Below, one piece after another: positions 14,273 to 30,224 of a stretch of DNA of 64,000 nt. Made by a program: the position numbers and the translations under genes. Under the pieces are notes generated by a model. That model ran no database searches, was not told the DNA's origin, and was given only the letters and a program-made list of their open reading frames with translations. The stretch lies in assembly GCF_056746865.1 (NCBI RefSeq), contig NZ_CM163382.1. One strand, given 5' to 3'. The first letter of the stretch is position 1. Each line of letters opens with the position of its first letter.

Positions 14273-15482
<1,210 letters not shown>

Positions 15483-15486
<4 letters not shown>

Positions 15487-16133
15487 GCCTCTGCTCCGGG
15501 TTTGATCAGCATCAGACCACAGCCGAACGCGCGGCTTTTGCCATACCCCTGGCTCAGACGTTGCAGAAATAACCCGGGATCGGTGACCGTAAGCATCCCC
15601 GTATAATCCACGCTACTGAACTGGATCAGTTGCCGGGAGTTTTCCCGCCACAGTTGCTGTTGTCGGTAGGCATCAACCGAGGTATCCAGCAGTGTAAAAC
15701 CGCTTCTCTCCCCCTGCGCTGCCAGCCAGTCCAGCGCCGCCTGTTGTTGATGCAACCAGACATCACTTCCTTCCGCCTGCCCCCTCACCTGCCGTTTCGC
15801 CTCCATCAGCAGATCGTGGCGCTTGCCCGCTTTACAGATTGTTGGATTCGCCCGCAGGTTGAAACAAAGTTGTTGTCCGGTACGCAGCTCGGGCACAAAT
15901 GACCGGCATTCGATGGTGAACGTTTCACTTTCTGCCGGGCGTTCCTGCGACAGTACAAAAAAGCGAAACGCGCCCTGGAGTTCTTCCCGACGATAAAGAA
16001 ATTGCCTTTCTTTGCCGCCAGGGAAGAGATCCCACAGCCACTGATGCATCACATATTCCCCGCGATCCACCAGATGCAGCAACTGCGCAGGCGAAAGCTG
16101 GCCGGTATGTAAGGTTATTCTTGAGAGGTACAT
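15483..16133 (-). CDS. cas6e: Cas6e/CasE crRNA endoribonuclease (divergent I-E variant)
   Basis: Start at MYLSRITLHTGQ (ATG 16131-16133, GGAGG upstream); C-terminal ...GYGKSRAFGCGLMLIKP glycine-rich motif typical of Cas6e. Confidence 0.88.
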
Positions 16134-16810
16134 GGTTCCTCCTTGCTGAGCCACGGCCCCTGATTGACGGTGCGTTCCCCAAACAACCATTGCTGACGAT
16201 TTAAAGGAACATCCCGGCGGCGCAATATTTTGCTCGCGACCAGGCCGTCGTGCTCCCCTTCCCACCAGCATTCATCCTGAAGTTTCGGGAGTGCGATTTT
16301 CAGGTCGTGGAAATGCTCCTGATACTGGTGATATGCGTTACGTAAAACATCAGACGCGTTGCCTTCAAGCAGTAACGGCGCAAGTGGTAATGCCAGCGGA
16401 TGACTTTTTCGCCCCAGATAAAGCGGAAAAACTGGATGGCGTAAACCGCCCTGCAACTGTTCGAGGCTGTAAGGCGCATCGGCTGTTGTTGCCACCGCCA
16501 CCATCCACCAGGCGTCGGTGTAGTAGTCGCGCCGGGAGATAATCGCGCTCAGAAGATCAGGGTCGCTCAACTCTTCGCGACGGCTGAAATAACGCGCTTT
16601 ACGCACCTCTTTTGGCATCTGGATTGTGTGATAATCCCGTGCCCAGCGCGGGTTACGGCTGGCGCAAACCACCAGTGAATAGTGGCGGTTAAACACGTTT
16701 AATCGTTCGGTATCATCACGCCGAATCCCTACCCCGGCAGCCAGCAGCCCCAGCAATGCTGAGCGCGAAGGCAGTTCATGGGTATGACGCACTTCGCCCG
16801 CTCCAAACAA
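16115..16810 (-). pseudogene. cas5: cas5e/casD remnant lacking about 20-25 N-terminal codons; fused to island att core
   Basis: Cas5e-like body (...LPSRSALLGLLAAGVGIRRDD..., ...LYLGRKSHPLALPL...) but the frame opens with only a TTG 3 codons after a stop, and the first codons overlap the 15-bp att repeat. Confidence 0.8.
16792..16806. repeat. att core direct repeat (left copy), CTTCGCCCGCTCCAA
   Basis: Identical 15-mer recurs at 36704-36718; matches the acceptor-stem/CCA end of a tRNA. Confidence 0.6.
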
Positions 16811-16969
16811 ACATTTCTCAACGTCTACTGAAGTCCATCAAATCCACGAATATCAAGCCTTTCAGCCATTTTCATAGCTTATTAACGTCTACTCACAACT
16901 ACCAGAATCTACACACAGAAGTGTATAGTAATGCGTATAGGACAAAATTTATTTTTTGGAGCTATACAC

Positions 16970-18184
16970 ATGCTGCTTTCAGACCTTGCTATCAGGCGCG
17001 CGAAGCCGAAAGAAAAGGCTTATACACTCAATGACGGTAACGGGCTTTCGTTACTCATTGAGCCGAACGGCTCGAAAGGGTGGCGACTACGTTACAGATT
17101 TGCAGGAAAGCCCAAAATGTTGTCGTTGGGCGTGTACCCTGATGTGTCTCTGTCTGATGCCAGAGCGGCAAGGGATGAGGCTAAAAGGCTTCTTGCTGGT
17201 GGTATAAATCCAAGTGAGGCCAGAAAAGCTCAAAAGCGAGAACAGGCGAGCAAATTTGGCAATACTTTTGAGGGTATCGCTCGCGAATGGTATGAAAAGC
17301 GGATCGACAGGTGGTCATCGTCATACGCCGAGGAAATGATCGAGACGTTTGAAAAAGACGTTTTTCCGTACATTGGCGGCAGGCCGATCGCAGAAATTAA
17401 GCCAATGGAGTTGCTTGCGGTTCTCTCCCGTCTTAATGACCGTGGGGCGACCGAAAAATTGCGTAAGGTTCGCCAGCGATGCGGCGAGGTGTTCCGGTAC
17501 GCAATCATCACCGGACGCGCTGAATATAACCCCGCACCAGATCTGGCAAGCGCATTTGCTCCACACAAAAAAGAGCATTATGCCTATTTGAAGGCCGACG
17601 AACTGCCGGAATTTTTCCGCGTTCTTAATACGTACACCGGAAGCCAGATCGTCAAGCTGGGTATGCGATTATTGATTCTGACAGGGCTCCGGCCAGGGGA
17701 ATTACGACAGGCAGAATGGCAGGAGATCGATTTTGATAATCGTTTGTGGGAAGTGCCTAAAGAACGAATGAAGATGCGCCGTCCTCATTGTGTGCCGCTT
17801 TCAGAACAGGCGATCGCTATTCTGGAACAGTTAAAACACATGACGGGGCAGTATCAGTTTATTTTCCCTGGTCGAATCCAGCACAGTAAGCCGATGAGTG
17901 AAATGGCGATGAACGTGCTTATTCGTCGTATTGGCTATTCTGGGCGCGTTACTGGTCATGGGTTCCGGCACACGATGAGCACGATTTTACATGAGCAGGG
18001 CTATAACACCGCGTGGATAGAAACGCAGCTTGCACACGTTGATAAGAACTCAATTCGTGGCACGTACAATCATGCGCAATATCTGGACGGGCGGCGCGAG
18101 ATGCTCCAGTGGTACGCCGACTATATGGACTCACTGGAACAGGGCGGCAACGTGGTGCATGGCAAGTTCGGAAAATGTGGATGA
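16970..18184 (+). CDS. int: Tyrosine recombinase, P4-type integrase
   Basis: ORF 16931..18184; start taken at MLLSDLAIRRAKPKEKAYTLNDGNGLSLLIEPNGSKGWRLRY... (ATG 16970); C-terminal catalytic region with HGFRHT and Y. Confidence 0.93.
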   Translation: MLLSDLAIRRAKPKEKAYTLNDGNGLSLLIEPNGSKGWRLRYRFAGKPKMLSLGVYPDVSLSDARAARDEAKRLLAGGINPSEARKAQKREQASKFGNTFEGIAREWYEKRIDRWSSSYAEEMIETFEKDVFPYIGGRPIAEIKPMELLAVLSRLNDRGATEKLRKVRQRCGEVFRYAIITGRAEYNPAPDLASAFAPHKKEHYAYLKADELPEFFRVLNTYTGSQIVKLGMRLLILTGLRPGELRQAEWQEIDFDNRLWEVPKERMKMRRPHCVPLSEQAIAILEQLKHMTGQYQFIFPGRIQHSKPMSEMAMNVLIRRIGYSGRVTGHGFRHTMSTILHEQGYNTAWIETQLAHVDKNSIRGTYNHAQYLDGRREMLQWYADYMDSLEQGGNVVHGKFGKCG

Positions 18185-18312
18185 CTGGTTGAGTATACAG
18201 TAGTAGACTTTGAGCGACGAAAGAAAAAGCTGTGTCTAGGGTCGCTCCCGAAAAACCGTATACCTCGACGGGCTGGCACAGCCACTACAGTAGAGGACGC
18301 TGAGGTGTGCGT

Positions 18313-19110
18313 ATGATTGATATTCATGCCGAATTAAACGAATACAAAAAAGATTTTATTTCTTTACGTGAATTTCTTGAGGTCGTGCTTAAGGTCGCTG
18401 GTGATGATTATGATGTTTCAGATCTCATAACTTGGATACTCAGGAGAATAAGCGGAGAACATATCCGCCTGTACACAGTAAATGAATTTAAGCTGTTGGA
18501 ATCTTTTTGTAACCCGTATCGGGATGAATTTGATTATGATGTTCTTTATAGAAATCTGGATGCGGTTCGGAAACATGGTTGTTTACCTGGTGAGAGGGAT
18601 GAAAATGGTTTTCTGGTGTCCGGTTATTGGGAAGATCCCGAATTTGAGAACATTGGATTTATAAGGGGTGAAATTTTCGCAATTTTTCCCGATGTCCTTG
18701 ACGCGTTAACGAAGCTGGAAGGCGCTAACTCTTCTGAAAATGACGAGGTACAAGGACGCGATATTGAAAAGAAAGAGTTGCGTACAGAGGATGATTTATT
18801 ATCCCAAATCGCAATGCTGGAAAGAGAAAACGCAGAGTTAAGGGCAAGGATAGAGCAGTTAGAGCAAGAGCGCCCGATACACTTATATAAATACTGGGAT
18901 AAAGACCCATTAGCTAAGGCTATTGAGATTAGAAACAGAGAGTGGGCCAATTACGATCCAGAAAATGATTTTGCCACCAGGGGAAATCAAGAAGCGATAA
19001 CTAGGGAGCTTAAGCAGTGGGGGGCAAGTAATGCTCTTGCAACGCTCATAGAGAGGACTGCCTGCCCTATTAACCGAGACAACAGCCAAAAGAACGCAAA
19101 GCCGGATTAA
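18313..19110 (+). CDS. Hypothetical protein (265 aa) with acidic coiled-coil segment
   Basis: ORF 18307..19110; ATG 18313; coiled-coil-like stretch LLSQIAMLERENAELRARIEQLEQER; no family recognised by eye. Confidence 0.55.
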   Translation: MIDIHAELNEYKKDFISLREFLEVVLKVAGDDYDVSDLITWILRRISGEHIRLYTVNEFKLLESFCNPYRDEFDYDVLYRNLDAVRKHGCLPGERDENGFLVSGYWEDPEFENIGFIRGEIFAIFPDVLDALTKLEGANSSENDEVQGRDIEKKELRTEDDLLSQIAMLERENAELRARIEQLEQERPIHLYKYWDKDPLAKAIEIRNREWANYDPENDFATRGNQEAITRELKQWGASNALATLIERTACPINRDNSQKNAKPD

Positions 19111-19126
19111 CGCACCATACCGCATA

Positions 19127-19275
19127 CCCTGAGGGTGATTTACTGTTACCCTGAGGGTATTTTTTTATCTTCCCCGTCAATTTTACCATCACCCTTAGGG
19201 TAGATTTCCTCCCGATTACCATCACCCTTAGGGTTAATTTCCTTCCGGTAACCATTAGGCCTGAGGGTATGAAAA
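19127..19275. repeat. Five copies of an 11-bp near-palindromic motif ACCCT(G/T)AGGGT upstream of alpA
   Basis: taccctgagggtg, taccctgagggta, cacccttagggtag, cacccttagggtta, gcctgagggtatg within about 150 bp. Confidence 0.55.
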
Positions 19276-19337
19276 TATTCGTTATTTCTGTGCCATGATT
19301 ACCTCGTCAAATTGAGTAGACGTTATGAGGTAAATAG

Positions 19338-19535
19338 ATGTCAAATACGCTTATTCGTTTAACAGAAGTTCAGCGTAGAACTGGATATAGCAAGGCATGG
19401 ATTTATCGCCTTATGGGGCAAGGTAAATTTCCTGCATCAGTTAAAATTGGCTCGCGAGCGATTGCTTTCGTTGAAAGTGAAATTGACGAATGGATCAATC
19501 AGCGTATTGCCGAATCACGCGGAACGGCTGCCTGA
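19338..19535 (+). CDS. alpA: AlpA-family phage transcriptional regulator/excisionase
   Basis: 65 aa MSNTLIRLTEVQRRTGYSKAWIYRLMGQGKFPASVKIGSRAIAFVESEIDEWI, classic AlpA HTH. Confidence 0.85.
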   Translation: MSNTLIRLTEVQRRTGYSKAWIYRLMGQGKFPASVKIGSRAIAFVESEIDEWINQRIAESRGTAA

Positions 19536-19610
19536 TTAAATAGCTACGGGTTATTGCCCAAGCTATCCACTAGCAAATAAAAAGTAACTTAATTCGATAG
19601 CGGAGTTTTT

Positions 19611-20435
19611 ATGAAACTGCGAAAAACGCCCGTACAGGGGCAGGGCTTTGTTCGGCCTGAAAACCAGAATCTGCAAAATTTCGGCGAAATTATCCCGGTT
19701 ATTTCCGGCGTTATTGGCGGGCGTGAAGCCGCTGTTGTTAGCGCAAAAGCGTTACACAAAGCGTTGGGCGTGGGAAAAGACTTCTCTACATGGATCACTG
19801 ATCGTATCTCTGAATATGACTTCACCATTGGGTACGATTACTCAGTCCATAAAACAATTTCCCCAAATTTGGGGAAAAGCCCGAATGGCGAGGCTTACAG
19901 CAAGATTAAGCACTCTGGCAGACCCGGTAAAGACTATCTGTTAAGTGTCGGAATGGCGAAAGAACTGGCAATGATCGAACGCACCGAACAGGGCCGCGCC
20001 GTTCGTCAGTACTTCATCAAATGCGAGGAGGAGCTACACAAGGTAGCGCCTGTACGTTCCGCAGCGTTACGCCGGGAACTGAAAGCCCGTATCACCGTAG
20101 CCAGCTACTTTAAGCCAATGTGTGCCGCGCTGGAGGCGTACCGGGCTGAACTGGGTAAAAACACGCTCCAGCACCACTACACCACGGAAGCCAATATGCT
20201 GGCGCGTATCGTGCTGGGTGGCATGAATGCAAAACAGTGGGCGCAGGCGAACGGCATCACAGGCGAACCACGCGACCACATGAGCACGCTGCAGCTTGAG
20301 CACCTTTCTTACCTTGAGCAGAGCAATATCACGCTGATTGAGTTAGGCCAGGACTACCACCAGCGGAAAGCTGAATTAATTCGTCTTTCGCAACGCTGGT
20401 TAGCCCGCCGCATGGAGGTGAGCAGCCATGCGTAA
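19611..20435 (+). CDS. Phage antirepressor (AntA/KilAC-type)
   Basis: 274 aa; sequence resembles prophage antirepressor proteins; part of int-alpA-ant module. Confidence 0.65.
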   Translation: MKLRKTPVQGQGFVRPENQNLQNFGEIIPVISGVIGGREAAVVSAKALHKALGVGKDFSTWITDRISEYDFTIGYDYSVHKTISPNLGKSPNGEAYSKIKHSGRPGKDYLLSVGMAKELAMIERTEQGRAVRQYFIKCEEELHKVAPVRSAALRRELKARITVASYFKPMCAALEAYRAELGKNTLQHHYTTEANMLARIVLGGMNAKQWAQANGITGEPRDHMSTLQLEHLSYLEQSNITLIELGQDYHQRKAELIRLSQRWLARRMEVSSHA

Positions 20436-20985
20436 ACCTGTCTTTTATGCCGGTCGCACTGAAATCTCTGTCATTAAATTCGATGACATTCAGGTGCGCA
20501 TAGTGAGTATCAACGGCGAGCCGTGGTTTGTTGGCGCTGATGTGTGTGCCGCGCTGGAAATCAGCAATGTTACTGATGCCGTTTCAGTTCTGGATAACGA
20601 TGAGGTAATGACCCTAGCTTTAACCGAGGGTCATTCCGGTAAGCGTGGTGGTGCCAGAAGCTGGAATGTTGTCTCTGAATCAGGTTTCTACAAACTGATC
20701 GCCCGCAGCCGTAAAGCTTCCACACCAGGCACATTTGCGCACCGTTTCAGTAACTGGGTATTCCGCGAGGTGATTCCTTCAATCCGCAAAACGGGGGGTT
20801 ATGGTGTTCCGTTTGCCATGCTGAATGATTTCAGTAAACGTCAGGCTGCATATCAACAGGAAGCCAGCAAACGCGGTTACAGGTTACAGCAATGCAAAGA
20901 GGCAAAAGATGCACTGGAACGAGAAGAGCGGGCGCTATGGCGTAAATATCAGCCTGATTTTCTGGAGGGTGAAAGCAATGTGTAA
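20428..20985 (+). CDS. Bro-N domain protein (prophage antirepressor-like)
   Basis: 185 aa; N-terminal IRIVSINGEPWFVGADVCAALEISN is the Bro-N signature. Confidence 0.75.
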   Translation: MRKPVFYAGRTEISVIKFDDIQVRIVSINGEPWFVGADVCAALEISNVTDAVSVLDNDEVMTLALTEGHSGKRGGARSWNVVSESGFYKLIARSRKASTPGTFAHRFSNWVFREVIPSIRKTGGYGVPFAMLNDFSKRQAAYQQEASKRGYRLQQCKEAKDALEREERALWRKYQPDFLEGESNV

Positions 20986-21153
20986 CGATCCGAACGTTAC
21001 AGAAAGAAAAAGCGCCCCGTTGCTGGATAACAGGCAAAACAAAGGCGACCGGGATAGGTCGCCAGTGGGAACAAAGGAAATCAAACGCATCGCCAACAAT
21101 GCCAGATTTGCGGCTGGTGGGCAATGTGATCAGTGTGCTGGCTTGCTGGTGGG

Positions 21154-21351
21154 CTATTCCTGCTCTTTAGCATCGCCATACTGCGATGTTTTCCAGGTAT
21201 GCGATTCCATTTTTGTGCGCCTGTACTCTTTTAAGAACTTCTCAAGGACAAACGCACATGGCGCAAATCTTTCCTGTTCTTGTTCGCTTACCGCATTTTT
21301 GCGTTGTTTTTTCCTGGATGAGGATAATTTCTTTAATGATTTGTCAGTCAT
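21154..21351 (-). CDS. Small basic protein (65 aa), paralog-like partner of 21409..21606
   Basis: ORF on strand opposite to neighbours; both small ORFs end ...AKEQE and share a duplicated 3' DNA segment. Confidence 0.35.
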   Translation of the reverse strand: MTDKSLKKLSSSRKKQRKNAVSEQEQERFAPCAFVLEKFLKEYRRTKMESHTWKTSQYGDAKEQE

Positions 21352-21408
21352 CGTAGATACCTGTAACCCTGTGCGCCACAGTTCACCGCACCACGGCGCT
21401 GGTGATGG

Positions 21409-21606
21409 TTACTCCTGCTCTTTGGCCTTCCGGCGCTGTTCATATTTTAATTTGCGTCCACAGGCATCTAAGACCCATGCGGAAAAATTAGCACTAGGAT
21501 TAGTTAATTTTTCTTGTTCAACACTGGCATCAATCCCATCTATAAGCTCGTGCGGGAATCGAATATTTTTCTTTGCTGATTTGTTGTTTGTGTTTCCGCT
21601 AGACAT
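21409..21606 (-). CDS. Small ribbon-helix-helix-like DNA-binding protein (65 aa)
   Basis: NIRFPHELIDGIDASVEQEK...FSAWVLDA resembles Arc/CopG RHH pattern. Confidence 0.4.
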   Translation of the reverse strand: MSSGNTNNKSAKKNIRFPHELIDGIDASVEQEKLTNPSANFSAWVLDACGRKLKYEQRRKAKEQE

Positions 21607-21810
21607 TGGTACACCTCACTTAAATGGATTTGATGGGCGCACACAATACAGCAAAAAAAGTGAGAAGTTAAGTATTGACATGTGCGCACACATGATTTTA
21701 ATCTGTGCGCAAGTTTGGGTTGCATTGCTCAAATTAAGCAACGCCCCGCAGTGCTCGCAACACATGCAGGGCGTCTAACCACCAACGATAGAAAGCGTAT
21801 CGAGGTAGCT

Positions 21811-22014
21811 ATGTTAAATCATACCACACACCCGCAAGGGCGGGACTCGCACAACCTGAATAAATACATCTGGCGTTTTATCGCCCTGAGCACCGCACAA
21901 CCACGCGTAATACACATCGAGGCCGCCAGCGAACAGGAAGCCCGTCAGCAATCCCCGGCTGGCTGCGTGATGGTATTTACTGCCCGCATCCGTCAGGGGG
22001 AATACTATGCGTGA
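21811..22014 (+). CDS. Small hypothetical island protein (67 aa)
   Basis: ATG 21811 after GAGG; MLNHTTHPQGRDSHNLNKYIWRFIALSTAQ... Confidence 0.4.
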   Translation: MLNHTTHPQGRDSHNLNKYIWRFIALSTAQPRVIHIEAASEQEARQQSPAGCVMVFTARIRQGEYYA

Positions 22015-22264
22015 TGAACGATTTATTCTTCTGGAGCAAAAATTCAGTGAAGCGCCAAAAAATGAAATTGATGCTCTTTTGCATATCGCGAATATGCTAA
22101 AAGTAGCAACGTTCCTTATAGTTTCGAATCTGGAGCATGAAACGGCGTTAGATATACTGAACAGTGCTGTCGATTATTCTGAATATATTGCCGAGGATAA
22201 ATACAGGCAATTACCAGATTTGTTAGCCCATAAATATAAAGAAGAACCTCACACCGGGAAATAA
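22007..22264 (+). CDS. Hypothetical protein (85 aa)
   Basis: ORF in operon-like series upstream of primase gene. Confidence 0.45.
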   Translation: MRDERFILLEQKFSEAPKNEIDALLHIANMLKVATFLIVSNLEHETALDILNSAVDYSEYIAEDKYRQLPDLLAHKYKEEPHTGK

Positions 22265-22266
22265 AC

Positions 22267-22569
22267 ATGAAGAAGATTAAATTTACTGGCTTAAATGCCA
22301 GCGGACAGACTCACCCGAAAATCAGGATCGGGGATATTTTCCGGGATAAATATGGTGACAGCGTGGTTATTAATTCCGTGTATGAACGGCACATTACATA
22401 CCGCCGCGCAGGGTACGACTATGACTGTGTGATGCCCGTTCATCAGTTCCGGCGTGATTTTTCACTGGTATGTGCAGCACCACGCAGTAAGCCCACCAGT
22501 AAAGAGAAAGCACGGGCAAATATTCAGGTAATAAAGAACATGATTAACGCATTCAGGGGCAAGAAATGA
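22267..22569 (+). CDS. Hypothetical protein (100 aa)
   Basis: ORF overlapping primase start; tight spacing with neighbours. Confidence 0.45.
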   Translation: MKKIKFTGLNASGQTHPKIRIGDIFRDKYGDSVVINSVYERHITYRRAGYDYDCVMPVHQFRRDFSLVCAAPRSKPTSKEKARANIQVIKNMINAFRGKK

Positions 22570-24692
22570 AACGCGCACCGAATTTAAAGCACCAGCCGAA
22601 AGACAAAATGACGGAGGTGATTATCTTTGCGGGTAGTGATGCCTGGGCACATGCGAAAGAGTGGAGCGAATGGGCCGGAAAGCATATTGCGGCAGATGAT
22701 ACACATCCAGTTATTCTTGGACCGGAACAACTGGCGAGTCTGGCAGACACGCAAATCATCGACAAAGGGCGCTATTACGTGCGCGTTTATCGTGCTGGTG
22801 AAATATCAGAGCAGCACCTTACACAGATAGCGACACTGCTTGCAGTGGCGGGTGTGAAGGAGGCGCGTTGCTACCGCAGCTTTGTTGATCAGCAGCCGGA
22901 GGACTGGACACCGCGCATGGCTGGACTGAAGGATGATGCGGAACGCGGTAACAGTCTGGTGATCAACCTTCCGGCGAAGACAAATTTCACCGGAAATTAT
23001 GATGACGAATTAAAGCCTCGTGTTGAAAGTCGCGTCGATGGTGTTTTCTGGGTAACGCCCAAAGTGGACAAGCAGTCAGGCGAAATTATCCGGCCTGAGA
23101 CGTGGTTATGTTCTCCGCTTGAACTACTGGGAACAGGAACAATCGGCAAAGAGCATTACCGCGTGATGCGCTGGAAAAAACCAGCAAACCATGAGGTCAT
23201 TACAATGGCGGTCCCGTGCGGAGGCATTGGTGACCGTGACGGCTGGCGGTTGCTGAAAGACCACGGCCTTAACGTGACGACCAACGGCAAATACAGGGCT
23301 ATCTTGGCTGACTGGATGCAGTTAAGCGGAAACCATGAGGAATGGCAGTTAAGCACAACAACGGGGTGGCATTTTGGTGCGTACATCATGCCGGATGGTT
23401 CGATCATCGGTGAATCAGAGAAACCCATCCTGTTTACCGGAAAAACTGCCGCTGTTAATGGCTATTCCGTGGCGGGAACAGCGGAGGGCTGGCGCGATAC
23501 CGTGGCACGGCTGGCTGGTGGTAATCCGTCCATGATGCTGGGTGTGGCGGTATCGCTATCTGCACCATTAATCGGGCTGGTGGGTGCTGACGGCTTCGGG
23601 GTTCATCTTTTTGAGCAATCATCAGCAGGTAAAACCACCACACAGAACATTGCATCAAGTTTATGGGGAGAGCCGGACGCGCAACGGCTGACCTGGTACG
23701 GAACGGCGTTAGGTATCGCCAACGAGGCCGAAGCACATAATGACGGGCTGTTACCCCTGGATGAAATAGGCCAGGCCGGAAACGCACGGGAGGTGTCCAC
23801 GTCAGCCTATACGCTGTTTAACGGTTCCGGGAAATTACAGGGGGCGAAGGACGGCGGCAACAGGGAGATAAAACACTGGCGTACGGTGGCAATCAGCACC
23901 GGAGAAATGGACGTTGAAACATTCCTCAAAACGGAAGGGATAAAAATTAAAGCGGGACAGCTTGTCCGTCTGCTTAACGTACCGATGGAAAAGGCCTCGC
24001 AGTTTCACGAATACAGCACCGGAAAGGCGCACGCAGACGCGTTAAAAGATGCCTGGACAGAAAATCACGGGGCGGCAGGTCGTGAGTGGGTTAAATGGCT
24101 GGCAGGCCACCAGCAGGAGGCAAAGGACGCGGTAAGGGCATGTCGCGAGCGGTGGCGCAACCTGATACCGGAGAGCTACGGCGAGCAGGTTCACCGTGTG
24201 GGGGAAAGATTCGCCGTACTGGAGGCCGCGCTTGTGCTTTCCGGTCATGTTACAGGCTGGGATGTTCAGGCGTGCCGTGATGCAGTTCAGCATAACTTTA
24301 ATGCCTGGGTGAAGGAATTCGGCACGGGCAACAGGGAATTTAAACAGATGGTTGAACAGGCTGAGGCGTTTTTGTCGTCGTTCGGGTTCAGTCGATACCT
24401 TCCCTATCCAAACAGCGACGAGCGTGATTTACCGATTAAAGACCTTGCCGGATACAGAAAGGGGAGTATCAGAAACGAAGATGACGAGTTCCGTTTTTAC
24501 ACGTTCCCGCATGTGTTTGAGGGTGAGATAGCACAGGGATTTAATCCGTCTCACTTTGCCCGCGCGTTGAGTGCAGCCGGAATGCTGGAAGCGGGAGGCG
24601 ACCGCCGTTACAAGAAAAAGGCGCTCGGCAGGATTGGCGGGAAGCAACATATTTTTTACGTGCTGATGTTCCAGCCTGAAGCAGAAGATTAA
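22566..24692 (+). CDS. Satellite/prophage replication protein, DUF927-type primase-helicase-like, Walker A present
   Basis: 708 aa; Walker A-like FEQSSAGKTT; immediately followed by iterons. Confidence 0.75.
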   Translation: MKRAPNLKHQPKDKMTEVIIFAGSDAWAHAKEWSEWAGKHIAADDTHPVILGPEQLASLADTQIIDKGRYYVRVYRAGEISEQHLTQIATLLAVAGVKEARCYRSFVDQQPEDWTPRMAGLKDDAERGNSLVINLPAKTNFTGNYDDELKPRVESRVDGVFWVTPKVDKQSGEIIRPETWLCSPLELLGTGTIGKEHYRVMRWKKPANHEVITMAVPCGGIGDRDGWRLLKDHGLNVTTNGKYRAILADWMQLSGNHEEWQLSTTTGWHFGAYIMPDGSIIGESEKPILFTGKTAAVNGYSVAGTAEGWRDTVARLAGGNPSMMLGVAVSLSAPLIGLVGADGFGVHLFEQSSAGKTTTQNIASSLWGEPDAQRLTWYGTALGIANEAEAHNDGLLPLDEIGQAGNAREVSTSAYTLFNGSGKLQGAKDGGNREIKHWRTVAISTGEMDVETFLKTEGIKIKAGQLVRLLNVPMEKASQFHEYSTGKAHADALKDAWTENHGAAGREWVKWLAGHQQEAKDAVRACRERWRNLIPESYGEQVHRVGERFAVLEAALVLSGHVTGWDVQACRDAVQHNFNAWVKEFGTGNREFKQMVEQAEAFLSSFGFSRYLPYPNSDERDLPIKDLAGYRKGSIRNEDDEFRFYTFPHVFEGEIAQGFNPSHFARALSAAGMLEAGGDRRYKKKALGRIGGKQHIFYVLMFQPEAED

Positions 24693-24715
24693 CTTCCCTG
24701 TGTGAGGTAAAAAGT

Positions 24716-24845
24716 TGCGGGTTATGCGGGTTATCCTGTGCATAAGTTAATTAACTGAATGATTAAAAAGGAAATTAATAACCCGCACGTAACCCGCAAA
24801 ACGGCAGTTATAACCCGCAAATGTGCGATTGTAACCCGCAAAATT
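24716..24845. repeat. Iteron cluster 1 (putative replication origin): convergent copies of TTGCGGGTTAT / ATAACCCGCAA
   Basis: gttgcgggttatgcgggttat then aataacccgcacgtaacccgcaaaacggcagttataacccgcaaatgtgcgattgtaacccgcaaa. Confidence 0.7.
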
Positions 24846-24902
24846 TCACTGTAAGAGTGTAAACAAGCGTAACTATCACGTTAAAACCGGAGAACAAACA
24901 GC

Positions 24903-25328
24903 ATGACGGCGCAAATATCAGCTTACGGGCGGCTGGTGGCTGACCCGCAGTTAAAGACCACCAGCAAGGGCACACAAATGGCGATGGCGAGTATGGCGGT
25001 CCCCCTTCCATGCAATCAGACAGATGACGGAACGGCGACGATGTGGTTATCCGTCCTGGCGTTTGGCAGACAGGCTGACGCACTGGCAAAACACCACAAA
25101 GGCGAACTGGTGAGCGTGGCCGGTAACATGCAGGTGAGCTGGTGGACGGGCCAGAACGGCGAAACGAGGCAGGGATGGCAGGTTATCGCAGACAGCGTAA
25201 TCAGTGCGCGAACGGCGCGACCGGGCGGCAAAAAAGGCCAGCAGGGGCAGGCTACTGATGCACTGAACAGGGCAAAGCAACAGACAGGCCAGCACGATGA
25301 TCCGTACGGGGACGGGATACCGTTTTAA
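24903..25328 (+). CDS. Single-stranded DNA-binding protein-like (OB-fold)
   Basis: 141 aa; pattern GRLVADPQLKTT...WLSVLAFGRQADALAKHHKGELVSVAGNMQVSWW...GETRQGWQV resembles SSB OB-fold core; Gly/Gln-rich tail ending DDPYGDGIPF like the SSB acidic tip. Confidence 0.55.
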   Translation: MTAQISAYGRLVADPQLKTTSKGTQMAMASMAVPLPCNQTDDGTATMWLSVLAFGRQADALAKHHKGELVSVAGNMQVSWWTGQNGETRQGWQVIADSVISARTARPGGKKGQQGQATDALNRAKQQTGQHDDPYGDGIPF

Positions 25329-25411
25329 TTCACAACAGCGAACAGAGTAATTACCCAGTGCGCCGTAAAGCCCCGTCCTTCAGGTCGGGGATATAAGGCG
25401 CGGTTTTCCAC

Positions 25412-25828
25412 CTAACTAGGTGTTTGCTGTTGTTCAATGTATTGGCGGATGATGGATATTGGCGCACCTCCGCAGCTACTGGCAAAATAGCTGGGACTCC
25501 ATAAAACGCCTTTGTAGTAATACCTGACTGCAATATCTGGTCGATCTCGTCGCAATAATCTACTCGATACGCCCTTGAGACTGTTCACCAGGGTGGATAT
25601 CGCCAATTTGGGAGGATAGTTAATTAGCAGGTGAACGTGATCTCGTTCTCCATCCATTTCAACCAGTTCAGCTTCAAAATCAGCACATACACTTGAAAAG
25701 TAAGTGCGTAGTTTTTCTATTGCGTCATGGTCAAAAATCTGGCGTCGGTACTTGGTAACAAAGACCAGGTGAACGTGCATCAGGAAGACACAGTGCCTTC
25801 CACGTCGGATATCGGTTTCTTTTTTCAT
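25412..25828 (-). CDS. tnpA: IS200/IS605 Y1 transposase TnpA
   Basis: Start at MKKETDIRRGRHCVFLMHVHLVFVTKYRR; HuH motifs HVHLV and DHVHLL; ends ...GGAPISIIRQYIEQQ. Confidence 0.88.
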   Translation of the reverse strand: MKKETDIRRGRHCVFLMHVHLVFVTKYRRQIFDHDAIEKLRTYFSSVCADFEAELVEMDGERDHVHLLINYPPKLAISTLVNSLKGVSSRLLRRDRPDIAVRYYYKGVLWSPSYFASSCGGAPISIIRQYIEQQQTPS

Positions 25829-25850
25829 AGGCCAAAGTATAATTTGGCAT

Positions 25851-27059
25851 ATGAAACGACTACAAGCTTTCAAATTCCAGTTAAGACCAAATGGAAAACA
25901 GGAGCGTGAAATGAGGCGCTTCGCGGGCGCATGTCGTTTCGTTTTCAATCGTGCTCTGGCGCTTCAGAATGAGAATCATGAGGCCGGGAACAAATATATT
26001 TCTTATGCAAAGATGACTTCCTGGCTGGTTGAATGGAAAAATGCTACTGAAACGCAATGGCTTAAAGATTCTCCCTCACAGCCATTGCAGCAGTCACTGA
26101 AAGACCTTGAGCGAGCCTACAAAAATTTCTTTCAGAAGCGTGCCGCTTTTCCCCGATTCAAAAAGCGGGGACAGCATGATGCATTCCGCTATCCGCAGGG
26201 TGTTAAGCTCGATCAGGAAAACAGCCGTATTTTTCTGCCGAAACTGGGCTGGATGCGCTACCGGAACAGCCGTCAGGTCACGGGTGTTGTGAAAAATGTC
26301 ACTGTCAGCCAGTCCTGCGGTAAGTGGTACATCAGTATTCAGACAGAAAGTGAAGTATCAACTCCGGTTCACCCTTCAGCATTAATGGTCGGGCTGGATG
26401 CTGGCGTGGCTAAACTCGCCACGCTGTCAGATGGCACGGTCTTTGAGCCTGTAAACAGTTTTCATAAAAACCAGAAGAAGCTGGCGAGACTTCAGCGCCA
26501 GTTAAGCCGCAAGGTTAAATTCAGCAACAACTGGCAGAAGCAGAAACGCAAAATACAGCGACTGCATTCCCGTATCGCAAATATCCGCAGGGACTACCTT
26601 CACAAAGTCACAACGACCATCAGCAAAAACCACGCAATGATAGTCATTGAGGATTTGAAGGTCAGCAACATGTCAAAGTCAGCCTCGGGTACGGTCAGCC
26701 AGCCGGGGCGCAATGTCCGGGCAAAATCAGGTTTAAACCGTTCGATACTGGATCAGGGCTGGTATGAAATGCGCCGTCAGCTTGAGTACAAGCAGCTCTG
26801 GTGTGGCGGTCAGGTGCTTGCTGTTCCGCCAGCGTACACAAGCCAGCGTTGCGCGTGCTGTGGTCATACAGCGAAAGAAAATCGCCTGTCACAAAGTCAA
26901 TTCAGATGCCAGGTATGTGGATATACAGCGAACGCCGATGTAAACGGCGCTCGTAACATTTTAGCGGCGGGGCACGCCGTTCTTGCCTGTGGAGGGATGG
27001 TGCAGTCAGGCCGCCCGTTGAAGCAGGAACCCACCGAAATGATTCAGGCGACAGCCTGA
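25851..27059 (+). CDS. tnpB: TnpB (OrfB) RNA-guided nuclease-like protein
   Basis: 402 aa; [17 protein letters not shown]...; C-terminal CxxC...CxxC zinc finger ([37 protein letters not shown]). Confidence 0.9.
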
Positions 27060-27265
27060 ACGTAGCAGGAATCCACGTCCTTCAGGGCGTGGAGGATGTC
27101 AAATATCAATGCGACGACTGGAATGTTCCAGGAAGGCACAGAGGCCACCGAAGCAACCGGATAATTTAGAAGACCTGAAACGGTCGCTTAAACGCACTGA
27201 AAAAGAAATGGGGATAGATGGGATCGGGAAATCAGTATGGCGTAACTACCAGAAGTAAGCACAGA
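27060..27265 (+). ncRNA. Putative omegaRNA (reRNA) scaffold at tnpB 3' end / IS right end
   Basis: By analogy with IS200/IS605 TnpB systems; structured region ending in hairpin GCCGGAGCAATCCGGC plus T-run. Boundaries not determined. Confidence 0.35.
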
Positions 27266-27289
27266 GCCGGAGCAATCCGGCTTTTTTTT
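27266..27289 (+). terminator. Hairpin plus T8 tract at IS right end
   Basis: gccggagcaatccggc followed by tttttttt. Confidence 0.5.
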
Positions 27290-27389
27290 GGCTGAAATCA
27301 ATCAATCTGTTTTTGTGATAGAAATATATTTATCTACCACTTTTTTCGATCAATAATGTGCATAATTTAGTCATTAAGAGGAAATTGCT

Positions 27390-27596
27390 GTGAATTGTAT
27401 TAACGACCTGAACACAGGCGATGTCAGAGGTGGTTCCGTTCATCTGGATGCACAGACCGTGATGCGCCTTAAGCAGTACAGAATCGACCATGTGAACAAT
27501 CACCCTGATCAGCCATTACCAGGCGTGGCGCAGATTGTCAGACATGCCGTAAACGCCTGGCTTAATCAGAATGGTTTTGCATCGGGGGGTGAGTAA
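27390..27596 (+). CDS. Small protein (68 aa), first gene of the novel operon; possible regulator
   Basis: GTG start 27390 preceded by AAGAGG; no recognisable family. Confidence 0.45.
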   Translation: MNCINDLNTGDVRGGSVHLDAQTVMRLKQYRIDHVNNHPDQPLPGVAQIVRHAVNAWLNQNGFASGGE

Positions 27597-27692
27597 TGAA
27601 TCGCTGGTACAGCATCAAAGCAGAGGGACGCCAATGTTATCTAACTCAGGTTTTATGAATTCTGACTCCCGATTCAAAATAGGAGGTTACTA

Positions 27693-30224
27693 ATGCCAGT
27701 CGTACCAACAGTATCCGGACGTCAGGTTGAGAGCCGTGGAGTTCAGTCAGCAGGCTTGCAGACGTTTTCTCAGCCAGGTATTGGTGATGCTTTTGTTCGG
27801 GCAGGGGCAGAGGCAATTGATGTTTTTGGTCAGGCAAAACAGCGTGCCAATATTGCCTTGATTCAGGAGGCATCCCTTAAACTCAGTCAGATAGGCAGTG
27901 ATCTGCTGAATAATCCTGAAACAGGATTGCTTAACCTGAAAGGGAAAAATGCTATTGGAAAAGGCCATGAGTATACACAGCAGTTTGATGCTCAGATCGA
28001 ACAACTGGCTATGTCGCTGCCGGATGAACAGGCTCGTAATGCTTTCATGCAGCAGGCGCAGCAGCAGCGTATTCAGTTCGCTACGCAGGCCGGGAGGTAC
28101 GAGATAGGGCAAATAAATGCCTACGAAGAAGGCCAGTTTCAGGCGACACTGCTGAATAATGGTAAAAATGCCTCAGCATTATATGGCGACAACGCAGCAT
28201 ACATATTGGCTAATACGCAAACTTTCCAGCAAATTGAGGATTACGGTATTGCGCATGGCTGGAGCGACGAGCAAATCCAGGCCAAGAAAATCGAGTTTAA
28301 AGAAGCAACAGCAAAAGCAACTGCTCAAAATGCTATTGGAGCAAACTATCTTCAGGTAAGACAGCAAAATGGCGAGTTAAGCGATACTGCTGCTGGATCT
28401 CGCCGTGCTGTAGCAGATAGTGGCTCTTCCGATCGTACCCGCGGTATACGCAACAATAACCCCGGCAATCTTGAATACAGCAAAACTAATCCGTGGATTG
28501 GGCAGACTGGTGATGATGGTCGCTTTGCCAAATTCGAAACCCCTGAACACGGTATTCGCGCGCTTGGTCGCAATTTGCTGTCGTATCAGCGTCAGGGTTA
28601 TGACACCATCAGCGAAATAATTAATCGCTGGGCACCGGCCAGTGATGATAATAAAACTGATGCTTATATACGGGCAGTATGTGCTCAGCTCGGTGTAACT
28701 CCTGACCAGCCGCTTGACGCATCAAATCCTGACACACTGAAATCTCTGTGCAAAGCAATTATTCATCATGAGCAAGGCAGTCAGCCGTACAGTGATCAGC
28801 AATTGGCCGCTGGCGTTAGTGCCGCACTGGGGCTTTCTCAGCTACCGACAAAAAATAAACGTTATACCGGTGTAGCCTGGTTCGATGCTTTAAGTGAATC
28901 AGATCAGGCCAGCGTGTTGCGACAGACGGATGCATTAGCCAGACAGCAGCAGGCTGAATATAGAACGATGCTCGAAAGCCGGGTTCGCGATGCAACGGCT
29001 GCGTATATGCGTGGCGTTGAATTTCCTAACCCGCCTGGTGAGGGTGAGTTCATTGCTGCTTATGGTGTCAGAGAAGGAAACCTGCGATATACCGAGTTCA
29101 GAAATTTGCAGATCGCCGGACAGTATATAGGCTCTTTCCGCAACATGCCGACAAGCAGCATTACCGCATATGTTGAGCAATTACGCCCGGATACTGGTGA
29201 GACAGGGGAGGGGTATGCGTCTCGTGCGGAGTTATTCGACCGGGTATCGGCGGCAGCCACGAAGGTAATAACCCAGAGGCAGAATAATCCGTTTAGTGCA
29301 GCGGTGGAAATCGGAGCCTATAAGCCGATCACCAGCAACAACCCTGACGACATCACTGCCGAGGTGGCTAACCGTTTCTCGTCGCAGGAAAGCTTACGCG
29401 CGTTGGGAATTAATGCCCCACTCCTCAACAGTGAAGAGGCGGCTGCGCTGGCACAGCAGGTGCGCGGCACTCAGAACGTTGACCAGACAATTAAACTGTT
29501 GCAGAGCATGGGGGAGAAGCTGCCTGCGCCAGCAATACGGCAGGTGGCATCTGTAATTGCTCCGAACAGTGCGGCAACAGCCTATTCTGCGCTGCTGCTG
29601 GGCACGCCGGATAACCAGTACGACAACACCAGGCCGACGATCCCATATAGTCAGTTCATCGGGTATAAGCCGACGATGAACAAGTACGACGTTGCAAAGG
29701 TTATTCTTTCCGGCGACCAACTACTGAATCCGACGAAGGCCATGAAGAATGCGGGCATAACTCCGGTACAGTTGCCGAGCGAAGATAAGATGAAAGACGC
29801 TTTCGACGAACAGGTAGGTAATGCATTTGCCCGTAACCCGCAGTTACGCCAGATCAGTTATAGCCTTTTCAAAGCCGCTTACGCAGGAATAGCTTATCAA
29901 TCTGGTGATGCCTCTACGGTAAGAACCAGTATGCCTGATACAGACATTGTAGCTGATGCCGTGAAGTATGCTACTGGCGGTATATACAATGGTTTTAATG
30001 GCGGCGACGTTGTAATGCCTTTTGGCATGGATAAATCTACTTTCAAAGATCGCTATACCACATCTGCGAAACAAGCACTGAAAGATGCCGGACTTAACGT
30101 AAATGCAGTGTCAAATTTCACGCCAGTTAATATCGGCAATAACCGGTATCGGCTTGTAAATGGTAGCGGACGCTGGGCAACAGATCCCAGAACCAATAAA
30201 GCTATTGTCGTGAGGGTTGAATAA
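27693..30224 (+). CDS. Large hypothetical protein P1 (843 aa), Q/A-rich, conserved-looking block RNNNPGNLEY...
   Basis: Strong RBS AGGAGG before ATG 27693; stop overlaps next start (TAATG). Confidence 0.8.
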   Translation: MPVVPTVSGRQVESRGVQSAGLQTFSQPGIGDAFVRAGAEAIDVFGQAKQRANIALIQEASLKLSQIGSDLLNNPETGLLNLKGKNAIGKGHEYTQQFDAQIEQLAMSLPDEQARNAFMQQAQQQRIQFATQAGRYEIGQINAYEEGQFQATLLNNGKNASALYGDNAAYILANTQTFQQIEDYGIAHGWSDEQIQAKKIEFKEATAKATAQNAIGANYLQVRQQNGELSDTAAGSRRAVADSGSSDRTRGIRNNNPGNLEYSKTNPWIGQTGDDGRFAKFETPEHGIRALGRNLLSYQRQGYDTISEIINRWAPASDDNKTDAYIRAVCAQLGVTPDQPLDASNPDTLKSLCKAIIHHEQGSQPYSDQQLAAGVSAALGLSQLPTKNKRYTGVAWFDALSESDQASVLRQTDALARQQQAEYRTMLESRVRDATAAYMRGVEFPNPPGEGEFIAAYGVREGNLRYTEFRNLQIAGQYIGSFRNMPTSSITAYVEQLRPDTGETGEGYASRAELFDRVSAAATKVITQRQNNPFSAAVEIGAYKPITSNNPDDITAEVANRFSSQESLRALGINAPLLNSEEAAALAQQVRGTQNVDQTIKLLQSMGEKLPAPAIRQVASVIAPNSAATAYSALLLGTPDNQYDNTRPTIPYSQFIGYKPTMNKYDVAKVILSGDQLLNPTKAMKNAGITPVQLPSEDKMKDAFDEQVGNAFARNPQLRQISYSLFKAAYAGIAYQSGDASTVRTSMPDTDIVADAVKYATGGIYNGFNGGDVVMPFGMDKSTFKDRYTTSAKQALKDAGLNVNAVSNFTPVNIGNNRYRLVNGSGRWATDPRTNKAIVVRVE

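Follow-up and report, generated by a model that had tools for sequence, protein, structure and literature searches.

A putative heteroimmune ribbon-helix-helix switch antisense to an eta-like open frame in an Escherichia coli phage satellite

Two small minus-strand genes, here called orfB and orfA, were analyzed in a 64,000-nucleotide (nt) stretch of DNA (contig NZ_CM163382.1; hereafter the window, with positions counted from its first letter). The window is Escherichia coli chromosome and holds a phage satellite of the phage-inducible chromosomal island (PICI) type with the layout of EcCICFT073. orfB, which encodes a ribbon-helix-helix (RHH) protein of 65 amino acids (aa), is the likely heteroimmune repressor of this satellite, a judgment that draws on operator-like repeats varying with the type of orfB present. 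We hold with moderate confidence that the region represents a widespread, uncharacterized heteroimmune RHH switch of Gram-negative PICIs, placed antisense in an eta-like open frame; the cassette junctions of this switch would be marked by the very segment that an initial annotation of this DNA had flagged. To the explanation as a whole, which combines a leftward repressor operon with orfB as its repressor, a cassette linker, and an eta-like plus-strand frame, we assign a probability of roughly 0.66.

In the proposed arrangement, orfB and orfA would constitute the leftward "maintenance" operon of an EcCICFT073-type PICI with the element order int, alpA, antA, bro, orfA and orfB (opposite strand), icd-like, DUF4222, and primase. 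An orfB dimer or tetramer would bind three TGTGCGCACA-type sites, two of which bracket the −10 element of the rightward icd/primase promoter while the third follows the −10 element of orfB's own promoter, so that binding at both promoters would keep the replication genes off and limit the repressor's own synthesis. orfA would be cotranscribed with orfB, 57 nt downstream. By analogy with eta and kil of P4, upstream transcripts activated by AlpA would be translated through the region, would thereby escape both termination and orfB repression, and would run antisense over the repressor operon, flipping the switch. The genes and frame concerned are the following.

20825–21778, plus strand: long frame of 317 codons that runs antisense to the promoter region and to both small genes; counterpart of the eta-like frame in related loci, shortened here by a 1-nt deletion
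21154–21351, minus strand: orfA, encoding a basic, helical protein of 65 aa (phrog_21027); second in the leftward operon
21409–21606, minus strand: orfB, a 65-aa RHH protein of the YlcI/YnfO (DUF3950) family; proposed repressor
21811–22014, plus strand: Icd-like gene, the first gene past the rightward promoter; in 61 of 69 related loci, the long frame ends with it in phase

The Satellite and Its Relatives

A 1.2-kb query from the region is matched over at least 80% of its length by 22 complete genomes, 15 of them, among the matches listed, at 99.8% identity. Matches to a 561-nt query extend to 1520 of 5426 complete E. coli genomes (∼28%, with at least one cassette copy). The genes int, alpA, and primase are co-oriented and follow the gene order of EcCICFT073, as in a Gram-negative PICI of that type, and Pfam and Rfam searches are consistent with a satellite gene layout. 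In SCU-105, the Prokaryotic Genome Annotation Pipeline (PGAP) gives the order integrase, hypothetical protein, AlpA-type regulator, AntA, Bro-N, then the oppositely oriented orfA and orfB, followed by Icd-like, DUF4222, DUF927 primase, and SSB. CFT073, the home of the prototype Gram-negative PICI EcCICFT073, displays the same layout, with both small minus-strand genes located between alpA and icd. PGAP already labels orfA a hypothetical protein and orfB a "YlcI/YnfO family protein", so no new kind of gene is claimed here. For comparison, 80 related loci were taken from IMG/VR; orfA was counted over 81 loci and the plus-strand frame over 69 distinct loci.

orfB and Its Candidate Operators

The orfB protein (MSSGNTNNKSAKKNIRFPHELIDGIDASVEQEKLTNPSANFSAWVLDACGRKLKYEQRRKAKEQE) scores 59 bits against NF041551 (YlcI_YnfO_N; cutoff 30) and 28.3 bits against PF13132 (DUF3950; cutoff 25), which places it above the curated cutoffs of the family that includes the YlcI/YnfO proteins of E. 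coli K-12 cryptic prophages. Its predicted fold, an N-terminal strand region followed by two helices, structurally matches known RHH domains. Homologues fall into 115 clusters, among whose genera are Serratia, Yersinia, Klebsiella, Salmonella, and Dickeya; R16, F17, P18 and N40, F41, S42, W44, V45 are invariant, and hydrophobic positions are conserved. PDB sequence searches with the orfB and orfA family profiles returned nothing usable, orfA having no match.

In related loci the orfB position is occupied by many different RHH modules of 57–101 aa, comprising at least 13 orfB types, nearly all of which end in ...RRQRRKAKEQE or ...ELQRRKAKE(Q/S/H)E. The orfB stop codon lies 57 nt ahead of the orfA ATG in nearly all loci. 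In satellites of Klebsiella, Serratia, and Salmonella (L085–L090), the YlcI/YnfO gene is the sole opposite-strand gene at this position, and orfA is missing.

Between orfB and icd lie the following sites and promoters, the latter read manually.

21634–21643: operator-like site O1 (TGGGCGCACA), just downstream of the −10 element of the proposed orfB promoter
21643–21671, minus strand: proposed orfB promoter (TTAACT, 17-nt spacer, TATTGT), a candidate only
21675–21702, plus strand: proposed rightward early promoter of the icd–primase operon (TTGACA, 16-nt spacer, TTTAAT)
21681–21690: operator-like site O2 (TGTGCGCACA), at the center of the palindrome CATGTGCGCACACATG (21679–21694) and in the spacer of the rightward promoter
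21704–21713: operator-like site O3 (TGTGCGCA-AG), after the −10 element of the rightward promoter; one base short of the closest relatives' TGTGCGCACAG

All three sites are copies of TG(T/G)GCGCACA, and no further match within one mismatch was found in the 64-kb window. Each orfB type has its own 9-mer in two to five copies, placed ∼21, 44, 66, 90, and in some cases 111 nt from the start codon of orfB. The type-specific words among related loci include GTGTTCAAC, TGTAAGACA, GTGTCCGAC, GGTGGCTGA, GGAATCCAG, TGTGATTCA, and TGAAATACA, and GTGTAAGACAC is the operator-like site of another orfB type. A (G)TATA(T/C) element matching the orfB promoter is conserved across orfB types, and TTGAC occurs at ∼61 nt from the orfB ATG in nearly all of them. 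A repeated site that varies with the adjacent protein appears here as the signature of heteroimmune repressor–operator pairs. This covariation suggests a function for the YlcI/YnfO (DUF3950) family; no functional study of DUF3950, YlcI, or YnfO, nor of RHH proteins in PICIs, was found in the searchable literature. The founding paper on Gram-negative PICIs calls their repressor "unclear" (PMC6092414). A heteroimmune RHH repressor with readable operators, if true, would explain satellite silence as well as the coexistence of different satellites in one cell, and it would offer simple experimental handles such as operator swaps and silent stop codons.

Relative to the closest relatives checked (L001, the SCU-105 element, and L009), O3 lacks one base at ∼21711, a deletion that damages the third site and shifts the long plus-strand frame. 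The 15 near-identical genomes among the matches listed span 1202 nt against the 1201 nt of the query; the deletion may be a real mutation or an assembly error.

Coding Strand of the Small Genes

The initial annotation had reported two 65-aa minus-strand open reading frames (ORFs) among plus-strand neighbors, overlapped by a plus-strand ORF of 317 aa that left the coding strand ambiguous, and one of the small products was said to have an RHH-like N-terminus, the pair being possibly a duplicated small regulator. The three ORFs are present as described. The small-regulator reading holds for orfB, an RHH DNA-binding protein that has type-specific operator-like repeats over two promoters, and homologues were found for both small proteins, so that a lack of homologues does not count against them. 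The ambiguity is real as well: the ratio of nonsynonymous to synonymous substitution rates (dN/dS) favors the minus frame, yet the plus frame is open in all 69 loci.

In each of three data sets, pairwise dN/dS was lower for the minus frame than for the overlapping plus frame, namely orfA (0.32 vs 0.41), the 59-aa orfB types (0.27 vs 0.38), and the 101-aa orfB types (0.19 vs 0.33). Variable sites of orfB are ordered position 3 > 1 > 2, as in coding DNA, and Shine–Dalgarno-like sequences precede both genes. The plus frame and the two small genes have their third codon positions in common, so the strands cannot be told apart by periodicity. We conclude that orfA and orfB are both protein-coding genes. 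PGAP calls in the region are inconsistent owing to the strand ambiguity, with long "Icd-like" genes or pseudogenes annotated across it in CFT073, CUVET18-565, and O157:H7. These calls, together with the conserved openness of the plus frame, would suit a reading in which only the long plus-strand ORF is a real gene, the small ORFs on the minus strand being spurious. Such a reading is extremely improbable in view of the curated family to which orfB belongs across Enterobacterales, its conserved hydrophobic positions, the Shine–Dalgarno-like sequences at both genes, the lower dN/dS in the minus frame, and a plus-strand peptide that is Cys/Ser-rich and not conserved between types.

The Long Plus-Strand Frame

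Across orfA and orfB, the plus frame contains no stop codon in any of the 69 distinct loci, over 191–819 codons. The same antisense frame in the window's ordinary genes has 0.036 stops per codon, or one per 28 codons. Openness is independent of which cassettes are present and extends through noncoding spacers, promoter regions, and the additional C and D cassettes described below. It likewise holds in Klebsiella, Serratia, and Salmonella satellites with a lone orfB (322–561 codons). Under random synonymous codons, the chance that the frame stays open is 0.03–0.77 per cassette, with 0.45–0.77 for orfA and 0.74 for the window's orfB; taken together for 13 or more module types, the outcome falls far below chance. 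The conserved trait of the plus frame, judged from these comparisons, is its openness and not its sequence, and selection probably keeps it open. Both strands show constraint, the minus strand as protein and the plus strand as an open frame.

Alternatively, the plus frame could be functionless, a long antisense ORF arising as a by-product of Lys/Glu-rich codon content and shared ancestry. The high single-cassette chances for orfA and the window's orfB are compatible with this, as are the lack of peptide conservation, the absence of a third-position excess in the non-overlapped part (8 variable sites at codon position 1, 14 at position 2, and 7 at position 3), and the interruption before icd in 8 of 69 loci, the window included. 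A mere by-product would not be expected to remain open through noncoding spacers and promoter regions, in all of the at least 13 unrelated-looking orfB/operator modules and the C/D cassettes (chance down to 0.03), and in three further genera; ordinary genes of the window show one stop per 28 codons in that frame. We regard a functionless frame as unlikely. A frame kept open over two to four opposite-strand genes provides a clean natural case for asking if selection can act on translation itself and not on its product, and it bears on why annotation pipelines disagree on strand here.

Nesting of the kil-in-eta type, in which icd forms the in-frame end of the long frame, characterizes 61 of 69 loci, with the closest relatives L001 and L009 among them. 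In the window, the 317-codon frame loses phase with icd through the 1-nt deletion at ∼21711 and terminates at 21778, which leaves 33 nt to the icd ATG. Near its beginning, the long frame has an in-frame ATG (20978) that overlaps the Bro-N stop codon (ATGTGTAA, 20978–20985) in a translational-coupling geometry, and a similar "MCN.../MNI...SAPLPER" start region recurs in the long frame of related loci. In Klebsiella, the N-terminal 300 residues of the frame resemble a genuine protein domain that gene callers leave uncalled.

orfA and the Pairing with orfB

orfA (protein MTDKSLKKLSSSRKKQRKNAVSEQEQERFAPCAFVLEKFLKEYRRTKMESHTWKTSQYGDAKEQE) is intact in 80 of 81 loci, where it occurs as 43 distinct sequences. 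A Lys/Arg-rich N-terminus is followed by a conserved helix core, ERFAPCAFxLEKFLKEY, and by one of three alternative C-terminal thirds; the AlphaFold2 model consists of two long helices at modest confidence (predicted local distance difference test score of 66). Named homologues come from E. coli and E. albertii only, and an exhaustive profile hidden Markov model search of 1.84 billion proteins with the orfA family retrieved just 14 cluster representatives, with no distant relatives hinting at function. Searches of orfA and 23 relatives against Pfam, NCBIfam, and PADLOC, toxin and defense families included, gave no match even at E ≤ 10. Our best guess is that orfA is an accessory nucleic-acid-binding regulator.

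The initial annotation had alternatively proposed a toxin–antitoxin-like pair, which in type II form would consist of an RHH antitoxin followed by a small toxin. Gene order and the RHH fold of orfB resemble such systems: the RHH gene comes first and the small protein second, and the closest structural matches of orfB include the antitoxins TacA, ParD, VapB, and MazE. In addition, the C-terminal tail of orfB and the first two-thirds of orfA are inherited as one conserved block, and one source labels an orfA relative "RelE". Type II pairs differ in that orfA has no toxin homologue in the family searches above and pairing is not obligate, since orfB stands alone in other genera and orfA also follows unrelated Arc-like RHH genes without the shared tail. 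Furthermore, operator-like sites lie over the promoter that drives the replication operon and not just over that of the pair, and toxin–antitoxin pairs do not typically have a hairpin-bearing spacer of 57 nt. A toxin–antitoxin pair is therefore very improbable, and a repressor operon is preferred.

Shared Ends and Cassette Joints

The similarity between the two genes resides at their ends.

21145–21171: 3′ shared segment, orfA copy; plus-strand GCTGGTG then GGCTATTCCTGCTCTTTAGC, the complement of ...AKEQE-TAG-CCCACCAGC
21398–21426: 3′ shared segment, orfB copy; plus-strand GCTGGTGAT then GGTTACTCCTGCTCTTTGGC, the complement of ...AKEQE-TAA-CCATCACCAGC
21328–21344 and 21568–21584: 5′ shared 17-mer, orfA copy (DKSLKK) and orfB copy (NKSAKK), respectively

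Both proteins end in AKEQE, as had been noticed initially along with the shared 3′ DNA. Around the stop codons, 17 of 20 bases are identical (21152–21171 vs 21407–21426), and beyond a 2-nt indel the similarity runs on through GCTGGTG to 24 of 27 aligned bases (21145–21171 vs 21398–21426), a quality reached in none of 200 dinucleotide-preserving shuffles of the 561-nt region. The 5′ homology, absent from the earlier description, comprises 15 of 17 bases (1 of 200 shuffles). The paired homologies are spaced by 240 nt at the 5′ ends and 255 nt at the 3′ ends.

Such matching ends had led to the suggestion of a duplicated regulator, and orfA and orfB could be ancient tandem duplicates whose middles have diverged past recognition. 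Their equal length of 65 aa here and the in-register DNA homology at both ends are what this would predict. The proteins, however, give no BLASTP alignment at E ≤ 100 and an hhalign probability of 0.3%; their predicted folds differ (strand region plus two helices vs two long helices); the equal length is peculiar to this locus; and the matching ends, only ∼27 nt at the 3′ side and 17 nt at the 5′ side, are mosaic modules present in only some variants. The suggestion of duplication thus fares poorly, and we consider it improbable. By eye, the orfA motif FAPCAFVLEKFLKEY looks similar to FSAWVLDACGRKLKY, which had suggested that orfA is an RHH paralogue of orfB that has degenerated; this candidate was rejected on the hhalign result.

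The distribution of the 3′ segment points elsewhere. The shared tail and its downstream spacer are found after 59-, 65-, and 101-aa orfB types, after 41–43-aa C cassettes, and after orfA variant 1. This variant, the window's own, ends in KEQE-TAG-CCCACCAGC, after which come 12 nt and an exact copy of the variant 2 stop context, TGAtcacattgCCCACCAGC; variants 2 and 3 are devoid of the KEQE part and retain CCCACCAGC further downstream. In one locus (L017), 26 nt of orfB-type spacer follow the orfA stop codon, and in Arc-like orfB types the KEQE tail is entirely missing. The orfB copy also forms the right edge of a widely conserved E. coli DNA block (21220–21438; ∼1200 genomes at 60–80% identity) that spans codons 1–44 of orfA, the 57-nt spacer, and the final nine codons of orfB. 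Because the shared 3′ end recurs at cassette boundaries, it is best read as a portable joint and not as the remnant of a whole-gene duplication. It would be a short linker (KEQE, stop codon, and CC(AT)CACCAGC) recurring at the junctions of swappable cassettes, and it probably marks sites where recombination joined them. Lambdoid phages carry conserved boundary ("linker") sequences between mosaic modules; the likeness lies in a short conserved stretch at the joints of interchangeable modules, while the stretch here differs in spanning a stop codon and part of a Chi complement, with a recombination mechanism that we infer.

CACCAGC lies within the joint, and the orfA copy has the full complement of the recombination hotspot Chi, CCACCAGC, such that a perfect Chi (GCTGGTGG) lies at 21145–21152, with a second perfect Chi at 21113, 32 nt away and likewise just downstream of orfA. 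Across the element, Chi occurs at 10 sites in ∼8 kb (17195–25145), with 18 sites in the 64-kb window; shuffles expect 1.3. Extra small cassettes in varying order occupy the same operon in several loci (L005, 2318–2443; L008, 2252–2395; L049, 2687–2986; L064, 2681–2980; L068, 2681–2806). C cassettes encode 41–43 aa and bear the same EIKRRQRRKAKEQE tail (RRQRRKAKEQE type), and D cassettes encode 47–54 aa with a hydrophobic N-terminus and a lipobox-like ...LLGNC or ...LMKYC motif.

The shared 3′ end might instead be a functional site, either an mRNA recognition or processing element or a protein-binding DNA site after each cistron, and not a recombination scar. Conservation past the stop codon into noncoding sequence is in keeping with this, as are the adjoining RNA stem-loop at the orfB copy and the occurrence of GCTGGTG three times within 290 nt. 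A site needed after each cistron fits less well with orfA variants 2 and 3, which keep only CCCACCAGC further downstream, and with the Arc-like orfB types, which have no KEQE tail; Chi, moreover, is frequent across the whole element. We find a functional site doubtful; it would not contradict the rest of the explanation.

RNA Structures

21373–21399, minus strand: conserved 10-bp stem-loop in the fixed 57-nt orfB–orfA spacer
21741–21774 and 21786–21802, plus strand: two conserved leader hairpins between the rightward promoter and the icd start codon

Owing to its G–U pairs, the stem-loop in the orfB–orfA spacer can form only in minus-strand RNA. RNAalifold on 12 spacer variants gives −15 kcal/mol, with pairing retained by one-sided changes and no compensatory double changes. 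Of the 14 predicted pairs in the leader hairpins, eight retain pairing through two-sided (compensatory) changes, and the hairpins are conserved across heteroimmune types; the second adjoins the icd ribosome-binding site. The leader hairpins have no Rfam match. An Rfam scan of 16000–28000 for immunity RNAs of the C4, CI, or IsrK type found nothing in 20900–21810, its only match above the gathering score being the int-alpA motif.

A bolder version of the switch, which we put forward as speculative and rather doubtful, would make orfB the missing master repressor of Gram-negative PICIs, with its operon antisense in a translated, sequence-indifferent frame. AlpA-driven translation would carry polymerase through, convergent transcription would silence the operon, and orfA would act as an immunity factor on the covarying icd leader hairpin.

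Comparison with Known Systems

The P4 immunity region, with promoters PLE and PLL and the CI RNA, was reportedly described by Forti et al. in 1999. A passage of PMC10111431 describes P4 kil as nested in eta, with eta translated only from the upstream late promoter, and states that eta translation prevents termination, allowing the late transcript to read through the immunity region. The present region resembles P4 in its position between an alpA/vis homologue and primase, in a short first gene past the early promoter (killing or division-inhibitor type) that is the in-frame end of a long ORF starting upstream, and in an immunity determinant lying inside that ORF, which an upstream activator-dependent promoter would be expected to bypass. 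It differs in that the P4 immunity factor is a same-strand RNA, whereas here it would be an RHH protein whose gene lies on the opposite strand and has a divergent promoter of its own, and in that the nesting is broken in this window by the 1-nt deletion.

Among phage immI regions, P22 has the RHH repressors Arc and Mnt and P1 has c4-icd-ant. Common to these and the satellite are a small RHH repressor that would control a promoter beside antirepressor-type (AntA, Bro-N) and icd-type genes, facing or diverging promoters, and antisense overlap; here, by contrast, the element is a satellite and not a phage, and the gene for the repressor sits antisense within a long frame. Like Stl/Rpr of Gram-positive PICIs (PMC6092414), orfB is a regulator divergent from the replication module and proposed to keep the island quiescent. 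Unlike the Stl type, which are larger helix-turn-helix repressors inactivated by helper proteins, orfB is a 65-aa RHH protein that is not known to interact with a helper phage, and the published trigger is AlpA activation: AlpA acts as an activator on the promoter of its own gene and on a downstream ORF3 fusion and is sufficient for excision and replication (PMC6092414). No description of a switch with a repressor operon antisense in a long translated frame was found in the searchable literature.

Several points weigh against the proposed switch. The promoters come from manual reading, and the tool's stricter sigma-70 scan lists none in 20800–22100. Variable sites of orfA have no clear difference between codon positions 1 and 2, and the role of orfA is guesswork. 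The long frame ends before icd in 8 of 69 loci, so fusion to icd is not essential. A functional RNA or DNA site at the linker would look identical to a recombination joint, recombination being read from mosaic patterns only. A tblastn search of 50,697 phage records with the Icd-like protein returned one unrelated match and neither P4 Kil nor Eta, the presence of P4 in that collection being unconfirmed. Transcription, translation, and DNA binding are, throughout, read from sequence alone.

Other Features of the Element

21044–21063, minus strand: terminator-like hairpin, GGCGACC...GGTCGCC then TTTGTTTT, ∼90 nt past the orfA stop codon

Homology to the SCU-105 element (L001) starts from 16792, the counterpart of the final 14 nt of tRNA-Gly in SCU-105. 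A placement next to tRNA-Gly, as in SCU-105, was considered and rejected: ARAGORN gives no tRNA at 15000–45000, and SCU-105 homology runs only from 16792, so the left-hand context of the element differs here. The int-alpA RNA motif (RF02996) lies at 18229–18296, between the integrase gene and the next ORF (46.9 bits, above the gathering score).

At the element end (27693–35040), three large consecutive ORFs of 843, 686, and 925 aa, without a Pfam or PADLOC match, may be cargo such as a defense system. An IS200/IS605-type tnpB of 402 aa at 25354–27103 has OrfB_IS605 and Cas12f1-like TNB domains; its 3′ end gives weak Rfam matches to HgcC and RAGATH-18 (26932–27115), below the gathering scores and guide-RNA-like. 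The tnpB segment stands in place of a ProQ/FinO-family gene and a hypothetical gene (L001, 13456–14440), and the rest of the SCU-105 element is 99.5–99.9% identical.

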